IMG/VR virus record: IMGVR_UViG_3300025117_000032
DNA from: a virus
Length of the DNA: 64,000 nucleotides
Strand: one strand, 5' to 3'
A model generated the notes under the pieces. That model was given only the letters and a program-made list of their open reading frames with translations. It ran no database searches and was not told where the DNA came from. A program made the translations under genes and the position numbers. This document shows positions 7,654 through 47,584 of the stretch, piece after piece (the first letter of the stretch is position 1; the number at the start of each line of letters is the position of its first letter).

Positions 7654-8178
7654 TTACACCAACTTACCTTCTTTAAGCCACTTCTCTGTTAGCATGGTTA
7701 AGCTCACAGGAGAAAACTTCCATGGGTCAACTCCAACATCGCATCTAAACCCCTTATCCGGCACAGTACCGTGTCTGTGCCCATGAAGGTGTATGGAACC
7801 ATGACTCATGTTTCGCCAACTCTCAATTGGATAATGGAAGAGGACAACCAATTGCCCCTGGTCTTTTATCTCAAGGTAGGAATTTACAGACTTCCACCCA
7901 TCCCAATTTTTCATATTCTTGGCATCATGGTTGCCAATGATGAAATGCTTACGACCATTGATTTGCTTAAGGATATCTTTAACTTTTTCCCCACCATAAA
8001 AAGACACATCACCAAGGATGAATAGCTCATCATTTGGCTTCACCTTTTCATTCATTCCAGAAACAATGGCATCGTGCATTTCCCAGATAGTTTCAAATGG
8101 GCGATTGCAATACTTGATGATGTTGTTGTGGAAAAGCCTTCAAAGGTGAAAATCTGCGGTATAAAATCTTTCGCTCAT
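7654..8178 (-). CDS. Calcineurin-like metallophosphoesterase, interrupted at codon 13 (TGA + 6 nt)
   Basis: ATG 8178 MSERFYTADFHL*RL FHNNIIKYCNRPF in frame with downstream LGD, GNHD, HYP, HGHxH motifs. Confidence 0.85.
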
Positions 8179-8300
8179 TTCACCAAACCTCCAATCTTTC
8201 GTCCAATTAACCAACCATTATTTAGAAATTGATCAATCTCATTTTGACGAATCATTTTTGTTTCAACCCCATTGTTGATCCAAACTCTATTTTTTATCAA
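8175..8300 (-). pseudogene. Remnant C-terminal DNA-binding module of a homing endonuclease
   Basis: LIKNRVWINNGVETKMIRQNEIDQFLNNGWLIGRK aligns with the C-terminus of the 8571-9278 protein (RVWICKDDKTKMIRPDELTEYTNGGWLKGRK). Confidence 0.6.
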
Positions 8301-8570: not shown

Positions 8571-9278
8571 TCATTTTGCCTTACCTTTTCTTCCTTTTAA
8601 CCACCCACCATTAGTGTATTCAGTTAATTCATCCGGGCGAATCATTTTTGTTTTATCATCTTTACATATCCAAACTCTATCCAATTTACCGTTCCTCAAC
8701 TTTTCTTTCATTTCTTTTGTTCCCATTGCCTGCTTTGTTTTAGTACTTATGTTTCTTTTTCTTTCTTCTGAAAATGGAACCCCGGTTAATTTTTCTCGTA
8801 TTTTTTCTTTGGTTTCAATTGATCGTGGTTTACTAGACCAAGGGCATTTTTTTCCTTTGTGTATTTTGCTCAATTTCTCTCTTGTTTCTTTACTATGGTG
8901 CTTACCCAAAAAACTTGGGATTCTATTTTCACCCTTTGTTCTATATTCTTTATCCATCCACTTTGCTTTTATTTTATCAGATATTTTTTTCTTTGTTTCA
9001 TCTGCACACCTACCAAAAGAATTTCCGCCATTGTCAATATTGTAACCAACATACTCATCTTTACTATTCAACTCTTTAATCCAATGCTGCTCTTTCTCAT
9101 TCAATTCTTCTTGTGAAGAACACTCGCATAGATTTTCACGAACAAAATTCTGTCTTCCATATTTTTTAATGGCAGCTTGTAATTTCAACCCCGATCCAAT
9201 ATATCGCTTATTGTTTATTGTTGTTTGCCCAACATAAATTTTACCATTTACCAAGTTTGTTGTCTTGTATATTATCAT
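8571..9278 (-). CDS. GIY-YIG homing endonuclease with NUMOD3 repeats
   Basis: IIYKTTNLVNGKIYVGQ...YIGSG...E...GYNI; HSKETREKLS. Confidence 0.9.
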   Translation of the reverse strand: MIIYKTTNLVNGKIYVGQTTINNKRYIGSGLKLQAAIKKYGRQNFVRENLCECSSQEELNEKEQHWIKELNSKDEYVGYNIDNGGNSFGRCADETKKKISDKIKAKWMDKEYRTKGENRIPSFLGKHHSKETREKLSKIHKGKKCPWSSKPRSIETKEKIREKLTGVPFSEERKRNISTKTKQAMGTKEMKEKLRNGKLDRVWICKDDKTKMIRPDELTEYTNGGWLKGRKGKAK

Positions 9279-21815: not shown

Positions 21816-22550
21816 TCATTTTTTCTCCCATCGTTTTTTCTGGCTTAAACTCATTTTTAATCTTACTTCTTCTGATACTGGTTTCCTTTTTTTAGCAGCC
21901 TCACTCATTTTTTTTCTCTCATTTGGATCGGAAAAGCGTTTCTTAATTGCCACTGATAATGCTTCTCTATGAGATTTAGATTTTTTTCCCCCATATGAAT
22001 TTTTATACCACCCACGTTTGCTTTTTTCTAACCTTGTTTCACTTATCTTTTTCTTCGTTTTTTCACTATGTTCTTTTCCATACATTCCATTTGTTTCTCC
22101 TGTTAATCTAACTCCATACATTGGGTTGTTTTCTCCAGAATATTTCCCTTTGGCTTTTTCGCTCATTTTTTTCTTTGTTTCTTCGCTGTGTTTTTTTCCA
22201 TAAAATGGGTTTGTTTCTCCTGTTAATCTAACTCCATACATTGGGTTGTTTTCTCCAGGACTTGCCCCATCTCCACCAAGAGTTTGATTATATCCAGACC
22301 TAAATGTGCAATATTCTTCGATGTACTTTATTTCTAGTTTTCCAAGCTCCTCAAATAACAAAGTTTCATCAATTTTTTCTATGGAAAAATTTTCACTTCC
22401 ATATTTCCTGATTGCTCTTTGTATGGAACAATTGATTTTTAATGAGTTTGCATCATATATGTGTTTAAACCACCTTTTTTCCATAGTAAGAGTTGTTTTA
22501 CCAACATACTGTTTTCCATTTATTTTGTTTGTTATCAAATATATTACCAT
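21816..22550 (-). CDS. GIY-YIG homing endonuclease with NUMOD3 repeats
   Basis: VIYLITNKINGKQYVGKT...RAIRKYG...GYNQTLGG; HSEETKKKMS. Confidence 0.9.
   Translation of the reverse strand: MVIYLITNKINGKQYVGKTTLTMEKRWFKHIYDANSLKINCSIQRAIRKYGSENFSIEKIDETLLFEELGKLEIKYIEEYCTFRSGYNQTLGGDGASPGENNPMYGVRLTGETNPFYGKKHSEETKKKMSEKAKGKYSGENNPMYGVRLTGETNGMYGKEHSEKTKKKISETRLEKSKRGWYKNSYGGKKSKSHREALSVAIKKRFSDPNERKKMSEAAKKRKPVSEEVRLKMSLSQKKRWEKK
22090..22258. repeat. 49-bp exact direct repeat inside GIY-YIG gene
   Basis: 22090-22138 equals 22210-22258 (encodes GENNPMYGVRLTGETN twice). Confidence 0.9.
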
Positions 22551-23279: not shown

Positions 23280-23984
23280 TTATAGATAAACCCAATCTTT
23301 CCATTTTTTTGTTTTTGACTTTAATCTATTACTAATTGTCATTCTGGTAACACCAAACACCTTGCTTGCTTCATCTAAAGAATCAAACTGTCTACAACCA
23401 ACAACAAATGACTTATGTAGTTTGTGATTTTTACCACGCATTTTATCTGAAAACGATTCTCTATCTCTTTTTTCCCAGGATTTAGAAATCCCCCTGGATT
23501 GTTTTACTTTGAACTCTAGGCTCTCCATTATTCTTTTTTGTTTGTGCCTAAATTCACTATTTCCCCATAACTCGTTCATTATCTCTCTTGCCCTATTTTT
23601 TCTTTTTGGGGTGTTTTGTAATTTCTTTTGCGCTTCACACAATCTTTTTTTTGTCTCTGGACTATTCATCCTTAATTTGTGTTTAGTTTTTGCTTCGTTT
23701 GACCATTCTCTTCCACTAATTCCCCCTGTTTCTAGGTTGTATGTGTCTCTGCGAAAAACCCACTTGTGGTCAACATATTTTTCTTCTTCAATCATTTCTT
23801 CGTATGAAAACAACTCAACCAATATCTCCCTACTAAAGTTTTGTTTTCCATATTTTCGGATTGCTTTTGTAAGCAACACCCCTGACCCCAAATACCCATC
23901 ATTGAGATTTTTTGTTTTATGAACGCCCCTGTATTTTTTTCCATTTATCAAGTTTGTTGTTTCATAAAGAATGTAATACATCAT
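23280..23984 (-). CDS. GIY-YIG (Seg-like) homing endonuclease
   Basis: ILYETTNLINGKKYRGVHKT..LNDGYLGSG...TYNL..GG; C-terminal HTH (F.SL.EA..FG). Confidence 0.88.
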   Translation of the reverse strand: MMYYILYETTNLINGKKYRGVHKTKNLNDGYLGSGVLLTKAIRKYGKQNFSREILVELFSYEEMIEEEKYVDHKWVFRRDTYNLETGGISGREWSNEAKTKHKLRMNSPETKKRLCEAQKKLQNTPKRKNRAREIMNELWGNSEFRHKQKRIMESLEFKVKQSRGISKSWEKRDRESFSDKMRGKNHKLHKSFVVGCRQFDSLDEASKVFGVTRMTISNRLKSKTKKWKDWVYL

Positions 23985-25131
23985 GTTGAAAGTATTTTTC
24001 TATACCACTCACACCTTTCATTTGTAACATGCTCCAATGAATATTTTGGGTATACCAACTTATACAAATTTTCTGACAACTCTTTTCTCATTGCATCATC
24101 TAGTATCAGTTGCCGAATGTATTTGTGCCATAGCTTATGGTTTTTCCTTGGGTTGACCAACAACGCATTCTCCCTATGAGTTAACAACTGCTTGTAGACA
24201 TACAAATCAGATGCAATCAACGCTTTTTTGCACATACCAGTTTCAATTATCTTCAATTCAGACTTGCACTCATTGAATGTGTGTTCATCTAGCGGTGCCA
24301 AGCAAATGTCCACATGCTTATAGTGGTTTCCATATTGAGTTATGGGAAGTGTTGTCCTTCTTACATACTGTTCTGGTGTTGCCTTACCATTGTCGTTGAA
24401 TATGGCTTCAAATTTGTTCCATATGGACTCTTCTGGGGTTATTTTCCTTGTTCTTTCCTCTTTGGTTAGGGGATGTAATTCAGTAACAGTTCCCCTTGTG
24501 TCATATCCACACATAACAACCTGAATCTTACTAGCAATCTCCTTATCATTGAACAACACATTGAAAGTGCCCTTGATTTTGTCCAAATCTCTCTCATGAC
24601 TTGAGCCACCAATCCAACCAACCCTAACTCTATCTGATTCTGTGGTTGGGTTTTGCCACATCTTCAAATTGGGATCAATAGCATTTGGTATGATGTGAAC
24701 ATTTTTGTTTATGGTCCTTCTTATGTGTTCTGCATAGATTTCTGTGGTTGTTGTAACCCAATCAGCGCACCTTAGATTTTCAATGATTTGGTGATGGATA
24801 CCCTTCGCCACAACCATGTGATAAGCTGGGTGCCCAAAAAACGGCAGCCAGAAGTCGTCAATATCAGAAACAACAATCGCACCGGCTGTGCGAAATTTAT
24901 CAGCCCATAGTGGGGTTGTTTCAGGTTCGGCGATGCGTCTGTGATAGTGGACAATATCAAACTCCCCTATATCGTCCTCTGTTATTGGTTGCATTAGTCT
25001 AATGTCAACCTCAAACTCTTCCCCATGGTTTTTTTGTATCTCTTGTGCAACCCAAATTGATCGGTAAGCTAATAGTGCCCAACACCATAAGAATCGCTGG
25101 GTATGATTAAAATTCTAATTTTGTTGGGCAC
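23981..25131 (-). CDS. GT-B glycosyltransferase, interrupted after codon 20 (TAG + 5 nt)
   Basis: GTG 25131 MPNKIRILIIPSDSYGVGHY [TAGCTTAC] RSIWVAQ... continues in frame into ORF 23981-24994 (DIDD, GWIGGSSHERDL, FNECKSELKIIE). Confidence 0.85.
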
Positions 25132-25138
25132 TATTTGA

Positions 25139-25696
25139 TCACCCACCTTTAATGAATCTGTCATATCTTTCATATAACTCTTCTTTCGTTATTGAACACT
25201 TTGCGTGCTTCGAACTGTTTTCCCCACGATATATTATGCTAAGATTGATAACGCAACCAATTATATGCGGGGGAACATCTTGTTTAAACCCCTCTAGGAC
25301 ACTAAAATTATGATCCAATGTGTATCCAGATGGTTGCAATATGTGTTTTGTTTGGATATATTCACTGTAATTTTCCAGTAAAGATATATCGGAATGCTTT
25401 GTGTACAAATTTACCAACTGTTTATATGCTTCCCATTTTGTTTTTGCAGAAAGTGGTGTCCAATATCCAGTTGACTCATGGTGGACCCTTATGCTATCTC
25501 TATTCTTTTCGTAAAAATTTTTTGATGCATCTGCGATTTTCATTAAACCAGGGTGGCATTCTTTTGTTAAACCTTTATTCCATGTGTCTAATCCAGAATG
25601 AGCGCAAGGTCTGCATTTCCAATTTTTATGCCGCCTTGTCCAATATCTTGGAAAAACTCTAATTAACCCACAGCCAACACAAGTTGCAGTATACAT
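25139..25696 (-). CDS. Putative HNH-type homing endonuclease
   Basis: CxxC..CxxC, WNKGLTK, YTLDHNFSV..GF...NL...ENSSK. Confidence 0.7.
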   Translation of the reverse strand: MYTATCVGCGLIRVFPRYWTRRHKNWKCRPCAHSGLDTWNKGLTKECHPGLMKIADASKNFYEKNRDSIRVHHESTGYWTPLSAKTKWEAYKQLVNLYTKHSDISLLENYSEYIQTKHILQPSGYTLDHNFSVLEGFKQDVPPHIIGCVINLSIIYRGENSSKHAKCSITKEELYERYDRFIKGG

Positions 25697-32123: not shown

Positions 32124-32930
32124 TCAAACCACCTTTCGTTTGTATTCCTTTAGCACAGACCGAATCTTGCTCCACGATACATTAAACTCTACAGAAATTT
32201 TTCTGTATGATAATCCCCCCTCCCTCAATACCAACATTCTTTCCATTTCCAATTCTGTAAACACAATTGTTCTTGATTTTATTAAGTTCTCAATATGTCT
32301 TGAGGATTTTTTCTTTCCAATCAAAGAATCACTAATTTTTTTTCGTTCTTCATTTGATGTAAATCTTCTTTTTGCAGAAATAGATGCAGATTGTTTAAAT
32401 TTTTCCAAATTTTCGGGTGTTATTTCTGCCCAGCGTTTTATTTGGGCTACCCTCATGTTTTGTTTTGCTTCGTCTGTCATCTTTTTTCCAGTATTCGCTA
32501 AAGTTAATCTCTCCCCAAACGATTTTGGATATTTCATTCCAATATGGGATCGACTAATTTTTTTCTTTGTTTCTAATGATGGGTTTATGGTTCCATTTTT
32601 TCTTTTTGTTTCCAAAATTTTACCAATGGTTTCCCGAGTCATTTTTCCAACTCTACCACCATGATCGTTATTATATCCAGACGCATATGAACCAAACTCG
32701 CCAACATATTTCTGTTCCAATATATTCAATTCTTCTCTTGTTTTCCCACTACATAAAACTTTCCAAGTGAAATTGTTTTCCCCATATTTCCTAATTGCAC
32801 AATGAAATGTTGCAGTTGACCCGTTTTTTGCAGATCTAAGGTGCTGTTTTTTTCTAATATCCAACTCAAATTTTGTTTGACCAATATATTGTTTTCCATT
32901 AATTAAATTTTCCGCTATATAAATAATCAT
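32124..32930 (-). CDS. GIY-YIG homing endonuclease with NUMOD3 and C-terminal HTH
   Basis: IIYIAENLINGKQYIGQT...AIRKYG...GYN; GLSYRKIS. Confidence 0.9.
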   Translation of the reverse strand: MIIYIAENLINGKQYIGQTKFELDIRKKQHLRSAKNGSTATFHCAIRKYGENNFTWKVLCSGKTREELNILEQKYVGEFGSYASGYNNDHGGRVGKMTRETIGKILETKRKNGTINPSLETKKKISRSHIGMKYPKSFGERLTLANTGKKMTDEAKQNMRVAQIKRWAEITPENLEKFKQSASISAKRRFTSNEERKKISDSLIGKKKSSRHIENLIKSRTIVFTELEMERMLVLREGGLSYRKISVEFNVSWSKIRSVLKEYKRKVV

Positions 32931-44715: not shown

Positions 44716-45567
44716 CTAAAATGTTGCAACAAACTGCATAACAATTGGATTCAACCCCTCATCTAGCTTGTATTCAACCGAAGCTGTTACCCTTTCAGAA
44801 AGGTCCATGTATGCGCCATACACCCAAGCATCTGGGTTGTAAACAAATTCAGAGTATCCATTGATGATATCGGCATTGTCTCTCACATTATAGTATCCAG
44901 CAAACAACCCAACCTTATCAAAGATCCCTGGGCTTGTTACACCCTTTGCCCAAAAGTTTCCATTGTCAGGCATATACTCACCCATGAAAGACAAGTTTGC
45001 AAACAACGATTCATACTTGAACAATCCCCCAACCACAAAACTCCCGTATGTAGTTTTCAAAGAGTCAACATCGTTGTAGCTAACAAACACTTCCAACCCA
45101 TCTTCAAACAAATTCACACTTGTCTTGACAACGTACTCTTCTGATCCCTCAAGGTACATTCCTTCTACAGAAAGTATATCATACCCTGTATCCAAATGTA
45201 AACCTTTTGCAATAAAATCTCCCCTTGGTGCCGTAATAAACACGGACTGATCCGGTCTTTGCATATGCATGAACCCAATGGGCACAGCCTTTTGACCAAT
45301 GGCCCAATTCAAATCGAACAGGCTAAACTTGATGTTAGCTTCCTCAAACTCTAGTGTGTTTAGGTCTTGATTCCAAACACCATAAAGCTCAAAGGATTCT
45401 GCATTGCACCACCCAGCAACGTAGGTAAGATCTGTTGAAAGGTTCTGTGCATCGTTGTCTACATTAACTGTAGCATCAATAGCAGCAGTACCACCAAAAT
45501 CCCCTGCCAACACTGGAAAGGCACCCATCATTGCAACCACCATAACCAACAAAATTTTCTTAATCAT
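44716..45567 (-). CDS. Outer-membrane beta-barrel (porin-like) protein
   Basis: Sec signal peptide, alternating aromatic beta strands, IGQ..VPIG motif of porins, C-terminal Phe (MQFVATF). Confidence 0.65.
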   Translation of the reverse strand: MIKKILLVMVVAMMGAFPVLAGDFGGTAAIDATVNVDNDAQNLSTDLTYVAGWCNAESFELYGVWNQDLNTLEFEEANIKFSLFDLNWAIGQKAVPIGFMHMQRPDQSVFITAPRGDFIAKGLHLDTGYDILSVEGMYLEGSEEYVVKTSVNLFEDGLEVFVSYNDVDSLKTTYGSFVVGGLFKYESLFANLSFMGEYMPDNGNFWAKGVTSPGIFDKVGLFAGYYNVRDNADIINGYSEFVYNPDAWVYGAYMDLSERVTASVEYKLDEGLNPIVMQFVATF

Positions 45568-46599
45568 GTTTCATTCTCCTTTGTTTGAACACCAGTTCTG
45601 AAAATGTATGTTCCCAATCCTCATAGTATTTCACTTGATGGTTTAGTTTGTCACCCAGGAACATCATCCTCAATCTGATATCGTTAAATCGTTGTGGTTT
45701 ACTGTTCACCAATTCATCAATTTGTTTCTTGGCTTGGAGACTGATATTAACTCTTGTCAATTGCATCAATTCCCAATTAGCCTGTATCAAATCTTGGTTG
45801 TCAACCACAACCTGATATTTGCCCAACATTTTCCCAGCGTTACCACTGTCCAAAGCGTGTTGAGCCATGTTAACCAATTCCGTCACGTTCTCAATCTTTT
45901 CTATAGAGACAATCGGGAACATTTTGAGATAAGTCTTTTCCCCTATTCCCTTTACACCAGAAATCCCATCACTCTTGTCACCATTTAGACACTTGAAGTA
46001 GATATGATTCCCAGGTAAATATCCATGCTTGCTGAAAAAAGCTTTCTCGTTTGTCAACATTTTCACTGTTGGATTGTAGCATGAAACTCTCTCATTTACC
46101 AACTGCTTGAAATCAGCGTCAGTTGAGTAAATAATAGCTTCACAATCTTTTTCCATCGAACCAACAATCTCTGCTATGATATCGTCTGCCTCTACATATG
46201 GGATTGATATTACCTTGATTGGCAACACCCCCAAATATTCTGAAAGACGACCTAGCTGGAATGAGAAGTTTGTATCCCTATCGTTCTCATTCAAAAAATC
46301 GTAAGCTTTCACCACCCCCTTTTTGAATTCCTTTTTCCTGTTTGCTTTGTAGTTTTTATTCTGGAGCTTCCTCTTTAGTCCAGAGTTTGGTCCATCCATT
46401 ATAACATAAACTTCGTCAGGAGTAAACATATTAATGGCAGTTTTCATGCTACGGAGTGTTCCAAATACAGCACCATAATGTTCACCATCAATGTTTGTAA
46501 CTTCCACGACATGAAAGCTTCGTATGAACATGCCTAATTATAGAAATCAACCAGTAACAATTTTTTCCTATAATTATTTACTATCCGATTTCTATCCAC
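45560..46599 (-). CDS. 5'-3' exonuclease / T4 RNase H-like, interrupted after codon 21 (TAG + 2 nt)
   Basis: GTG 46599 MDRNRIVNNYRKKLLLVDFYN [TAGGC] MFIRSF...; YKANR, EADDIIA, STDADFKQL, GDKSDGISGVKGIG. Confidence 0.88.
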
Positions 46600-46655
46600 T
46601 TGCATCACCCCACCTTCTCTCCCAAACCATCTTGGTTAATATACTAATTTTCTAA

Positions 46656-46985
46656 TCAATCAGCAATAACCTTTTCATTTATCATTCCATTTCTGATTAG
46701 GGTGTCAGCCAAAACGTGTGCTATTCTGTCAAGGTTTGTGTGCCCCTCTTCTCCCTCAAAACATTTCAACTTGAAGTCCGTTTCTACAGCATGAAGAACC
46801 TCATATATCAACGTCTGAAACTTATCTTCTGGGGTTCTTGTTCCAGAATATATGCGTATGGTTCTATCCCAGAAATCTATCTGACCCCAAAGGGAATCTC
46901 GCTTATGACCATCTACATCGGATGGTCAATCACAATATTCTATTTTGTAAATGAACCCACCAACGTTTATCTTGCTCATTGGCAT
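46656..46985 (-). CDS. Phage metallopeptidase-like protein with in-frame TGA at codon 20 (recoded or pseudogene)
   Basis: MPMSKINVGGFIYKIEYCD*PSDVDGHKRDSLWGQIDFWDRTIRIY...TLIYEVLHAV..., single frame of 110 codons. Confidence 0.6.
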
Positions 46986-47584
46986 TATGAAACACCCCTT
47001 GCAAAATCTATCGCCATCTGTTTAGCATCTTCCATTGTTTCAGCAACCCATTCCCCACGACCAAAATCTTCTGGGTAATATTTGGTTTCAAGCTCTCTAA
47101 TATTAATGTCTTCATCTACGCATTCCCAAGATACCATTACAACTTCATCACCATTAGCATTGAAAGCCCACTCTGCCCTAACATTCTTGCGACCTTTATC
47201 ACTCCAAAAATCTATGGAACACCTTAAAGCATCATCTCTATCCTTTGGTTTATAGTGGCAGTCCCCAAATTTACAAGTAGACCCAATGGTAAAACCATAG
47301 ATTGCACGGTGCGACCAACCAAACCATTTATTGTCAATAGTACAAAACCCAATTGAACAAACAGAATTACCTGGGTTAGCAAGCTCTGGCTTTATGCCCA
47401 TCTTCTTGCATAACTTAACTGCATCTTTTGGTTGCCCTATGAGTAAACCACCCTCTGTGAAAGCTTGTTTCAGGATAATTTTTTCACACCCATGAGCATC
47501 CTCACCACTATATTCCACATCTTTTAAGACATACCCAAACTTTCTCATGTGTCTTTCTTTTAGAACCTTTTTAGTTTCCATCAT
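46985..47584 (-). CDS. Conserved phage protein
   Basis: CSIGF...KWFGWSHRAIYGFTIGS...AKQMAIDFA. Confidence 0.7.
   Translation of the reverse strand: MMETKKVLKERHMRKFGYVLKDVEYSGEDAHGCEKIILKQAFTEGGLLIGQPKDAVKLCKKMGIKPELANPGNSVCSIGFCTIDNKWFGWSHRAIYGFTIGSTCKFGDCHYKPKDRDDALRCSIDFWSDKGRKNVRAEWAFNANGDEVVMVSWECVDEDINIRELETKYYPEDFGRGEWVAETMEDAKQMAIDFARGVS

Follow-up and report, generated by a model that had tools for sequence, protein, structure and literature searches.

The flap endonuclease gene of an uncultured groundwater phage is split on the minus strand into a leader ORF of 23 codons and a body ORF of 323 codons, separated by the five nucleotides TAGGC. The gene lies in a 64,000-nucleotide stretch of IMG/VR virus record IMGVR_UViG_3300025117_000032, referred to here as the window. 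Comparison of this gene with its relatives suggests that leader and body encode a working enzyme that would be decoded by a short, hairpin-assisted translational bypass, and on balance we favour a true hop of +5 nucleotides from DFYN to MFIR. Our confidence in this hop is kept modest because the landing triplet, GGC, is a poor one and because Met takes the place of the Leu found in close relatives.

Structure of the split gene

A reading of the sequence alone had described a nuclease gene broken between ..KKLLLVDFYN and MFIRSF by TAGGC, and both the ORF analysis and separately assembled contigs confirm this arrangement (Table 1). The same reading had held the remainder of the nuclease, in ORF 45560–46531, to be intact, and this proves correct: the 323 codons of the body retain DG, EADD, STDADF and GDKSDG, which are the family-invariant acidic motifs. 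The body matches Pfam PF02739 (5_3_exonuc_N) with 87.6 bits against a cut-off of 34.3 (E 1e-24). The match begins only at position 11 of 164 in the profile; the body thus lacks the first strand, and it is the leader that supplies this strand and its Asp. PF01367 (C-terminal helix-hairpin-helix, SAM-fold), a domain present in all the homologues, is matched by the body at 33.5 bits (E 6e-8), below the cut-off of 40. The set of metal-binding carboxylates is complete only when leader and body are joined, the first catalytic Asp being encoded solely in the leader ORF, by the codon GAT at 46548–46546.

Uninterrupted homologues of 49–62% identity read ..LL[VI]DFYNLFIRNF.. with no break. The closest of them, P0002 (62% identity), has KILLIDFYNLFIRNFHVVEVTNIDGEHYGG where the window has KLLLVDFYN, TAGGC and MFIRSFHVVEVTNIDGEHYGA. 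The DFYN segment of P0002 aligns to residues 13–28 of Taq polymerase, RVLLVDGHHLAYRTFH, and by way of P0002 the leader segment aligns with Taq residues 13–20; the spacing from Asp to Arg is the same even in Taq. We take the Asp of this segment, in P0002 and in the leader, to be the equivalent of the metal ligand Asp18 of Taq. Since DFYN-MFIR is in register with the DFYN-LFIR of the homologues, deletion of exactly five bases restores a complete enzyme. The Met at the resume position replaces Leu in comparison with close relatives, and Met is common there in distant uninterrupted homologues.

The leader has a strong ribosome-binding site, and comparable GGTGG-type sites lie upstream of the leaders at loci L004, L005, L006 and L169, at which AAT is likewise the final leader codon. 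No ribosome-binding site is present before ATG 46531. Readthrough of TAG in frame would add 29 unrelated codons before the next stop. TAG ends 10 of the 52 long minus-strand frames and is thus an ordinary stop in this phage; reassignment of TAG was ruled out on this count, and gaps of 4 and 5 nt would remain out of frame regardless. No tRNA genes were found in the window.

The gene forms part of a replication module with the order recA/uvsX-like gene, small ORF, Tad6-like gene, nuclease, 283-aa ORF and dnaB-like helicase. The 283-aa ORF (44716–45567, minus strand) overlaps the nuclease stop by 8 nt and has a signal-peptide-like N-terminus and no Pfam match; it is syntenic, at 283–296 aa, after the nuclease gene in most relatives. 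The 199-aa protein encoded between the recA-like and nuclease genes (46985–47584, minus strand) matches Pfam Tad6, a type I Thoeris inhibitor, with E 1.5e-46; at this position the relatives have just an ORF of 70–90 aa or a homing-endonuclease gene.

Table 1. Features of the window and gap alleles of the nuclease gene (take-off codon / gap / resume codon)
Feature	Position in window	Strand	Remarks
Shine-Dalgarno-like AAGGTGG	46610..46616	-	4 nt upstream of leader ATG 46605
Leader ORF	46537..46605	-	23 sense codons, ending ..RKKLLLVDFYN; aligned with N-termini of uninterrupted homologues
Proposed take-off codon AAT (Asn)	46537..46539	-	final sense codon of leader
Coding gap TAGGC	46532..46536	-	stop TAG 46536-46534, then GC 46533-46532
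Putative landing triplet GGC	46534-46532	-	last triplet of gap
Body ORF	45560..46531	-	323 aa + stop; resume codon ATG 46531-46529
Rod-like RNA hairpin	46540..46595	-	-15.9 kcal/mol, z -4.62 vs dinucleotide shuffles
Alternative hairpin	46535..46576	-	arms 46576-46565 / 46546-46535; repeat of 12 nt, 92%
Four GIY-YIG/NUMOD3 paralogues	8571-9278, 21816-22550, 23280-23984, 32124-32930	-	tblastn, E 1e-9 to 1e-37
Allele of the window (WIN)			AAT / TAGGC / ATG
Allele L004			AAT / TAGGTAAAC / TTG
Alleles L005 and L006			AAT / TAGC / TTG
Allele L169			AAT / TAAC / TGT
Allele L171 (L091 = same allele)			ATG / TAACTG / AAT
Allele L173			TAT / TGAAT / AAC
Allele L045 (distant, 37% identity)			CTT / TGACTA / AAT

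The five bases in other assemblies

The product of 323 aa is recorded, identical, on 13 contigs. The 281 nt spanning the gap are identical in contigs of three other samples (one from ENA and two from JGI), and Logan contigs from groundwater and soil runs of different studies cover the gap with zero differences; some of these contigs may derive from the window's own source, and the comparison is one of contigs, not raw reads, so that minor variants are possible. All contigs of the phage are identical at the gap, with no within-lineage variation, and there is no homopolymer at the site. A check for the presence of the gap had been proposed together with the sequence-only reading, and at the level of contigs, not reads, TAGGC recurs in other samples and studies with no gapless version. 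That the gap is a sequencing or assembly artefact is therefore extremely improbable, given the identity of the ENA, JGI and Logan assemblies. The public runs listed as carrying the phage include no RNA datasets. A nucleotide search of a phage collection and a single-protein scan of viral contigs gave no match.

Stop-led gaps in related nuclease genes

Further alleles were sought among roughly 60 close family members (E below 1e-60), the contigs being inspected where the called N-terminus was odd or short. Seven other alleles were found, with stop-led gaps of 4, 4, 4, 5, 6, 6 and 9 nt situated at the window's codon or the preceding one. A stop codon opens the gap right after the last sense codon in all eight alleles, and all three stops are represented. 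Removal of the gap restores the family spacing D-x-x-N-x-F/Y-I-R in each allele with no indel. The leader motif is kept via synonymous changes, and all the bodies are intact, with the invariant acidic residues. An insertion of 1–3 residues at the gap site occurs in none of the 58 uninterrupted homologous proteins checked, and beyond the gap alleles no insertion at this site is visible among about 160 loci listed. A maximum-likelihood tree built from 60 proteins requires seven or more changes of gap state, and in it the sister of the window (61% identity) is uninterrupted; by this comparison the gap site is a hot spot, and its alleles appear to be largely independent.

Six deposited proteins, P0007, P0016, P0017, P0033, P0048 and P0052, have wrong or truncated N-termini. 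The starts called in the gap alleles are TTG or ATG codons past the gap or lie in an overlapping frame (MTSIIS.., MISIIS..), and as a result the database versions of these proteins lack the catalytic Asp. P0022 and P0042 were rejected as truncated examples: their genes are uninterrupted and the gene caller had begun too late. Viral contigs were also scanned twice with degenerate patterns, L-x-DFYN with TAG or TAA after it; of the roughly 200 loci returned, none had a nuclease gene at the match.

At a further locus, L168 (2466–2510), the nuclease gene is broken six codons downstream by the loss of one T from a T-run (AAT TTT TGA), so that a −1 shift would be required to read it. This gene has no hairpin, and its immediate upstream neighbour encodes a homing endonuclease. 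A slippery-site frameshift, an error and a fresh lesion are all conceivable explanations.

A hairpin abutting the proposed take-off codon

The rod-like hairpin of the window ends directly before the take-off codon, its 3′ arm being made up of the codons for (V)DFY. Its outer stem pairs 46595–46585 with 46550–46540 and its inner helices pair 46583–46572 with 46562–46552; the inverted repeat 46540–46557/46578–46595 is the outer stem of the minimum-energy structure. Two inverted repeats had been pointed out earlier, and both exist, but only 46540–46548/46587–46595 is conserved in the relatives, the other being peculiar to the window phage. The latter corresponds to an alternative hairpin that is not seen in relatives and cannot form together with the conserved one; its 3′ arm takes in the take-off codon plus the first two bases (UA) of the stop. 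Relative to the conserved hairpin, this arm reaches 5 nt further in the 3′ direction, an offset equal to the gap length; the agreement may be a coincidence.

For comparison between alleles, the 70 nt ending at the last sense codon were folded in each case. All eight gap alleles have a rod-like hairpin with a 3′ arm that ends 0–3 nt before the stop, and their z-scores are −3.8 (WIN), −1.7, −1.9, −2.6, −2.7, −7.0, −7.7 and −4.3. The hairpin is present in none of the 11 relatives without a stop-led gap (ten uninterrupted genes and L168), for which z ranges from −1.5 to +1.4. The two sets of z-scores are fully separated (Mann–Whitney p 1.3e-5).

The 3′ arm is formed by conserved codons (D-F-Y, D-A-M or D-G-L), and the 5′ arm, in the unconstrained start of the leader, tracks it. 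The arms are GATTTCTAT / ATAGAAATC in WIN and L006, GACTTCTAT / ATAGAAGT in L005, GATTTTTAT / ATAAAAAT in L004 and GATTTCTAC / GTGGAGATT in L169, while those of L171, L173 and L045 are unrelated sequences. The arms thus differ between lineages yet remain complementary, G·U pairs included, and an RNAalifold analysis of five alleles gave double compensatory changes in 4 of 14 consensus pairs, with the window arm misaligned. Because the stems contain G·U pairs and bulges, these observations point to selection on the hairpin as RNA and not as a DNA palindrome. Fold-back copying at the DNA level, as an origin of the inverted repeat, was judged unlikely on the same features of the stems. On the 3′ side, the window has a 9-bp hairpin 12 nt beyond the ATG; folds of the 60 nt downstream, examined for a 3′ barrier structure, do not separate the gap alleles from the uninterrupted genes.

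Two other stop-led gaps occur in the window phage, both on the minus strand, and they repeat the layout of the nuclease gap, the second more weakly than the first. In a glycosyltransferase gene (25064–25151) the arrangement is TAT / TAGCTTAC / CGA, and a 13-bp hairpin ends at the take-off codon (z −5.8). In a phosphoesterase gene (8134–8222) it is CTT / TGAAGGCTT / TTC, with a 7-bp stem only, which ends 2 nt before the stop (z about 0).

Putative landing codons and a model for the proposed hop

In four of the five gaps of at least 6 nt, the take-off codon and the final triplet of the gap are synonymous (p about 8e-4), a count that includes the glycosyltransferase and phosphoesterase gaps of the window phage. 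In L169 the landing triplet AAC, which overlaps TAA, is also synonymous with the take-off codon, and the full list of matches comprises L004, L169, L045 and the glycosyltransferase and phosphoesterase gaps. The four distinct gaps that follow an Asn take-off codon (TAGGC, TAGGTAAAC, TAGC and TAAC) all end in C, which is the base that pairs best with G34 or Q34 of tRNA-Asn.

The landing triplet of the window, GGC, has no base in common with AAT, and its pairing with the Asn anticodon would be limited to G·U, G·U and C-G; it is the poorest take-off/landing match among the alleles found. The sequence-only reading had itself considered its case weakened by the unmatched landing codon, and we agree, GGC being the worst fit to the hop rule. 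With this poor landing and an ATG as resume codon, the window allele is the weakest of the set. The central claim of that reading, that DFYN is joined to MFIR by skipping TAGGC, has nevertheless gained strong comparative support from the eight gaps, their specific hairpins and the exact spacing, and we retain it as the main idea, in the form of a proposal.

We propose that one process of pausing, re-zipping and re-pairing would explain all eight alleles, which share the stop, the hairpin and the spacing. In the window, translation would begin at ATG 46605 of the leader and pass through the long hairpin for 23 codons, whereupon the ribosome would pause, its P site holding peptidyl-tRNA-Asn on AAU and its A site UAG. 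During the pause the basal stem of the hairpin would be unwound, with its 3′ arm in the E site and the exit channel. The stem may then re-zip behind the ribosome, pulling the mRNA forward; the peptidyl-tRNA would release AAU, the ribosome would move by 5 nt, and the tRNA might re-pair at the last triplet of the gap, GGC, before decoding resumes at AUG 46531. The predicted product is a single chain, ..LLLVDFYN-MFIRSF.., with the catalytic Asp in place and a tryptic junction peptide LLLVDFYNMFIR. The yield of such a bypass could be small, since spontaneous stop-hops in Escherichia coli constructs are described as low-level events. Neither a nascent-peptide signal nor an internal Shine-Dalgarno site was identified at the window gap; the leader has an RKK run before LLLVDFYN, and the same basic residues are found in uninterrupted homologues.

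A more tentative proposal, to which we give considerably less credence than to its contrary, is that refolding of the hairpin, and not a cognate landing codon, sets the hop distance, and that stop-hops of 4–9 nt are recurrent in phage replication genes. If this is true, peptidyl-tRNA-Asn would resume beside GGC without normal re-pairing, a landing-independent form of bypassing that is so far undescribed.

Alternative explanations

The most serious competitor of the hop is termination followed by reinitiation, which had also been put forward in the earlier reading. Ribosomes would stop at UAG and restart 2 nt on at AUG 46531, giving a 23-residue peptide and a 323-residue body that would make up a two-chain enzyme or, alternatively, a truncated protein with another role. 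A stop-to-ATG distance of 2 nt and a body with no ribosome-binding site are the classic geometry of translational coupling. Moreover, the resume codon is start-capable (ATG or TTG) in WIN, L004, L005 and L006, a TTG overlaps the stop in L173, and the substitution of Met for the Leu of close relatives is confined to the window. L169, however, resumes at TGT and L045 and L171 at AAT, and the next usable start would delete invariant residues. With three alleles resuming at non-start codons, reinitiation cannot be the general mechanism. It would, in addition, leave a body that lacks the first β-strand and the equivalent of Taq Asp18, and we know of no case in which a peptide of 23 residues contributes a central strand in trans. 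Nor does it predict a gap-specific hairpin or synonymous landing triplets. The earlier suggestion thus fails for the family and retains some force for the window allele, which does have an ATG; for this allele we consider it unlikely.

A second possibility is that the gene is dead or dispensable. The gap would then be a tolerated inactivating insertion, such as a repair scar left by a homing endonuclease, with the 5′ nuclease of host Pol I acting as substitute. Phage RNase H/FEN enzymes can indeed be non-essential, as is the case for T4 rnh; the identity of all contigs of the phage would allow the lesion to be recent, and the landing match is poor. Against this, every family-invariant acidic residue is preserved within 323 intact body codons, and the leader keeps its ribosome-binding site, its motif and a hairpin with z −4.6. 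The same architecture has arisen or persisted in at least seven lineages with intact bodies, and decay would not retain a gap-specific hairpin with compensatory changes. We regard an inactive gene as quite unlikely.

Programmed frameshifting, finally, would cross the window gap by a +2 shift with GGC in the A site (DFYN-G-MFIR, junction peptide LLLVDFYNGMFIR) or by a −1 shift (DFYN-LG-MFIR, junction peptide LLLVDFYNLGMFIR); the 4-nt alleles would call for +1 shifts and the in-frame alleles for readthrough. An A-site stop with a refolding 5′ hairpin is known to stimulate forward shifts (PMC3639245, PMC6321510), and the frames overlap openly from TAA 46540–46538 to TAG 46536–46534. Yet three mechanisms would be needed for one conserved architecture. 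The products would carry 1–3 extra residues at a point where no homologue examined has an insertion and where the spacing from Asp to Arg is the same in Taq. For re-pairing in the P site, GGC at +5 is a better target than UUA at +2 or UAA at −1, and the synonymous landing triplets are left unexplained. Frameshifting is, in our estimation, distinctly unlikely. Removal of the gap at the RNA level by splicing, editing or polymerase slippage was set aside in view of gap lengths of 4–9 nt, the lack of a homopolymer and a hairpin that leaves the gap outside it.

Homing endonucleases and the probable origin of the gap

GIY-YIG/NUMOD3 homing-endonuclease genes immediately precede the leader in L005, L006 and L168, and one lies near the uninterrupted nuclease gene in L170. 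With the endonucleases of L006, L168 and L170 as tblastn queries, four paralogues were found in the window (Table 1). None is situated between recA and dnaB, the paralogues being 13–38 kb away. Those at 8571–9278 and 23280–23984 adjoin the phosphoesterase and glycosyltransferase stop-led gaps. By analogy with the relatives, the nuclease gap is probably a scar or an immunity mark of homing-endonuclease traffic at a conserved site. If the gene 60 system is taken as a guide, the gap might shield the site from cleavage. The non-adjacent paralogues of the window recall the gene 60 element, for which a 'hit and run' situation has been described (bioRxiv 10.1101/2022.08.31.505936).

Implications and comparison with known systems

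The eight natural alleles vary in gap length, stop and take-off codon, and their uninterrupted sisters provide built-in controls. Such a set could test whether pairing in the exiting mRNA drives ribosomes forward and how close a match the landing codon must offer. There is also a consequence for annotation, in that gene callers truncate or mis-start all the gap genes, and essential phage enzymes are thereby annotated without a catalytic residue. To our knowledge, programmed bypassing in phages is limited to T4 gene 60 and its homologues, together with one partly tested case in a Streptomyces phage.

As to the protein, the window gene resembles the FEN/5′–3′ exonuclease family (Taq Pol I 5′ nuclease, T5 D15, T4 RNase H) in that PF02739 is detected above its cut-off, with PF01367 detected below its own, and in that the body keeps the conserved acidic residues, and its context is that of a recA/uvsX–FEN–dnaB replication module. 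It differs from the family in that the first strand, with the Asp, sits in a separate short ORF.

The coding gap of T4 gene 60 is 50 nt long and is part of the MobA homing-endonuclease element (bioRxiv 10.1101/2022.08.31.505936; 10.1101/2024.12.09.627546). A 5′ stem loop lies 9 nt before the take-off site, and pairing in the exiting mRNA has been proposed as the forward driver (bioRxiv 10.1101/2024.12.09.627546). The nuclease alleles share with gene 60 a sense take-off codon followed at once by a stop and a gap inside an essential replication-type gene; in L005 and L006 the gap is, in addition, linked to a free-standing homing-endonuclease gene directly upstream, and the gap has a repeated origin at one site. 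In contrast to gene 60, the nuclease gaps are only 4–9 nt long and leave no room for an A-site stem loop within the gap, there is no internal mini Shine-Dalgarno sequence, and the nascent chain is only about 23 residues long. The nuclease hairpin abuts the take-off codon (0–3 nt) and is a conserved feature, whereas the 5′ stem loop of gene 60 is not conserved between clades. The window allele departs further, its take-off and landing codons being unmatched and no endonuclease gene being adjacent.

In the terminase genes g6/7/8 of the Streptomyces phage phiHau3, two inserts of 10 nt are proposed to be bypassed, with a 5′ stem loop as the proposed stimulator, and mass spectrometry detected the junction peptide in E. 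coli when UUA was replaced by UAA (PMC10732093). Here too the non-coding blocks are short and lie in a phage gene, the gap is opened by a slow or unreadable A-site codon and a 5′ stem loop is present. The natural trigger in phiHau3, however, is the rare sense codon UUA, with sensing of host growth phase proposed and a flanking Shine-Dalgarno interaction, whereas the nuclease gaps of 4–9 nt have a true stop as the proposed trigger and no evident regulatory logic.

In synthetic stop-hops in E. coli, as related in later accounts, peptidyl-tRNA skips a stop and lands on a synonymous codon, such that nine nucleotides are decoded as one amino acid (Weiss et al. 1987 via PMC10732093; PMC5009743). The CTT TGA CTA of the L045 allele has the same form. 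Spontaneous stop-hops in E. coli constructs are described as low-level (bioRxiv 10.1101/2024.12.09.627546), and a 2016 review knew of no natural in-frame stop hop (PMC5009743). The synthetic cases are laboratory constructs without stimulators, whereas the natural alleles have a dedicated hairpin and some, with gaps of 4 or 5 nt, are out of frame.

When a hairpin refolds just 5′ of a shift site, shifting becomes more frequent in the forward (+1) direction and less frequent in the −1 direction, and this holds for 70S ribosomes too (PMC3639245, PMC6321510). The internal Shine-Dalgarno sequence of prfB and such refolding upstream hairpins resemble the model proposed for the nuclease alleles in that a duplex just behind the P site favours forward movement, prfB also having an A-site stop. 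They differ in that they produce a one-base shift to an overlapping codon, whereas the hop would change register by 4–9 nt with no extra residue.

Overall, the kind of event proposed here is already known from the 50 nt of gene 60, the 10 nt of phiHau3 and the synthetic stop-hops. What appears to be new, as judged from the alleles compared, is the very short gap of 4–9 nt, in some cases out of frame, with a hairpin abutting the take-off codon as the one conserved candidate stimulator. The apparent recurrence of the device at a single catalytic-motif site would likewise be new, as would an allele, that of the window, in which the putative landing codon is not cognate.
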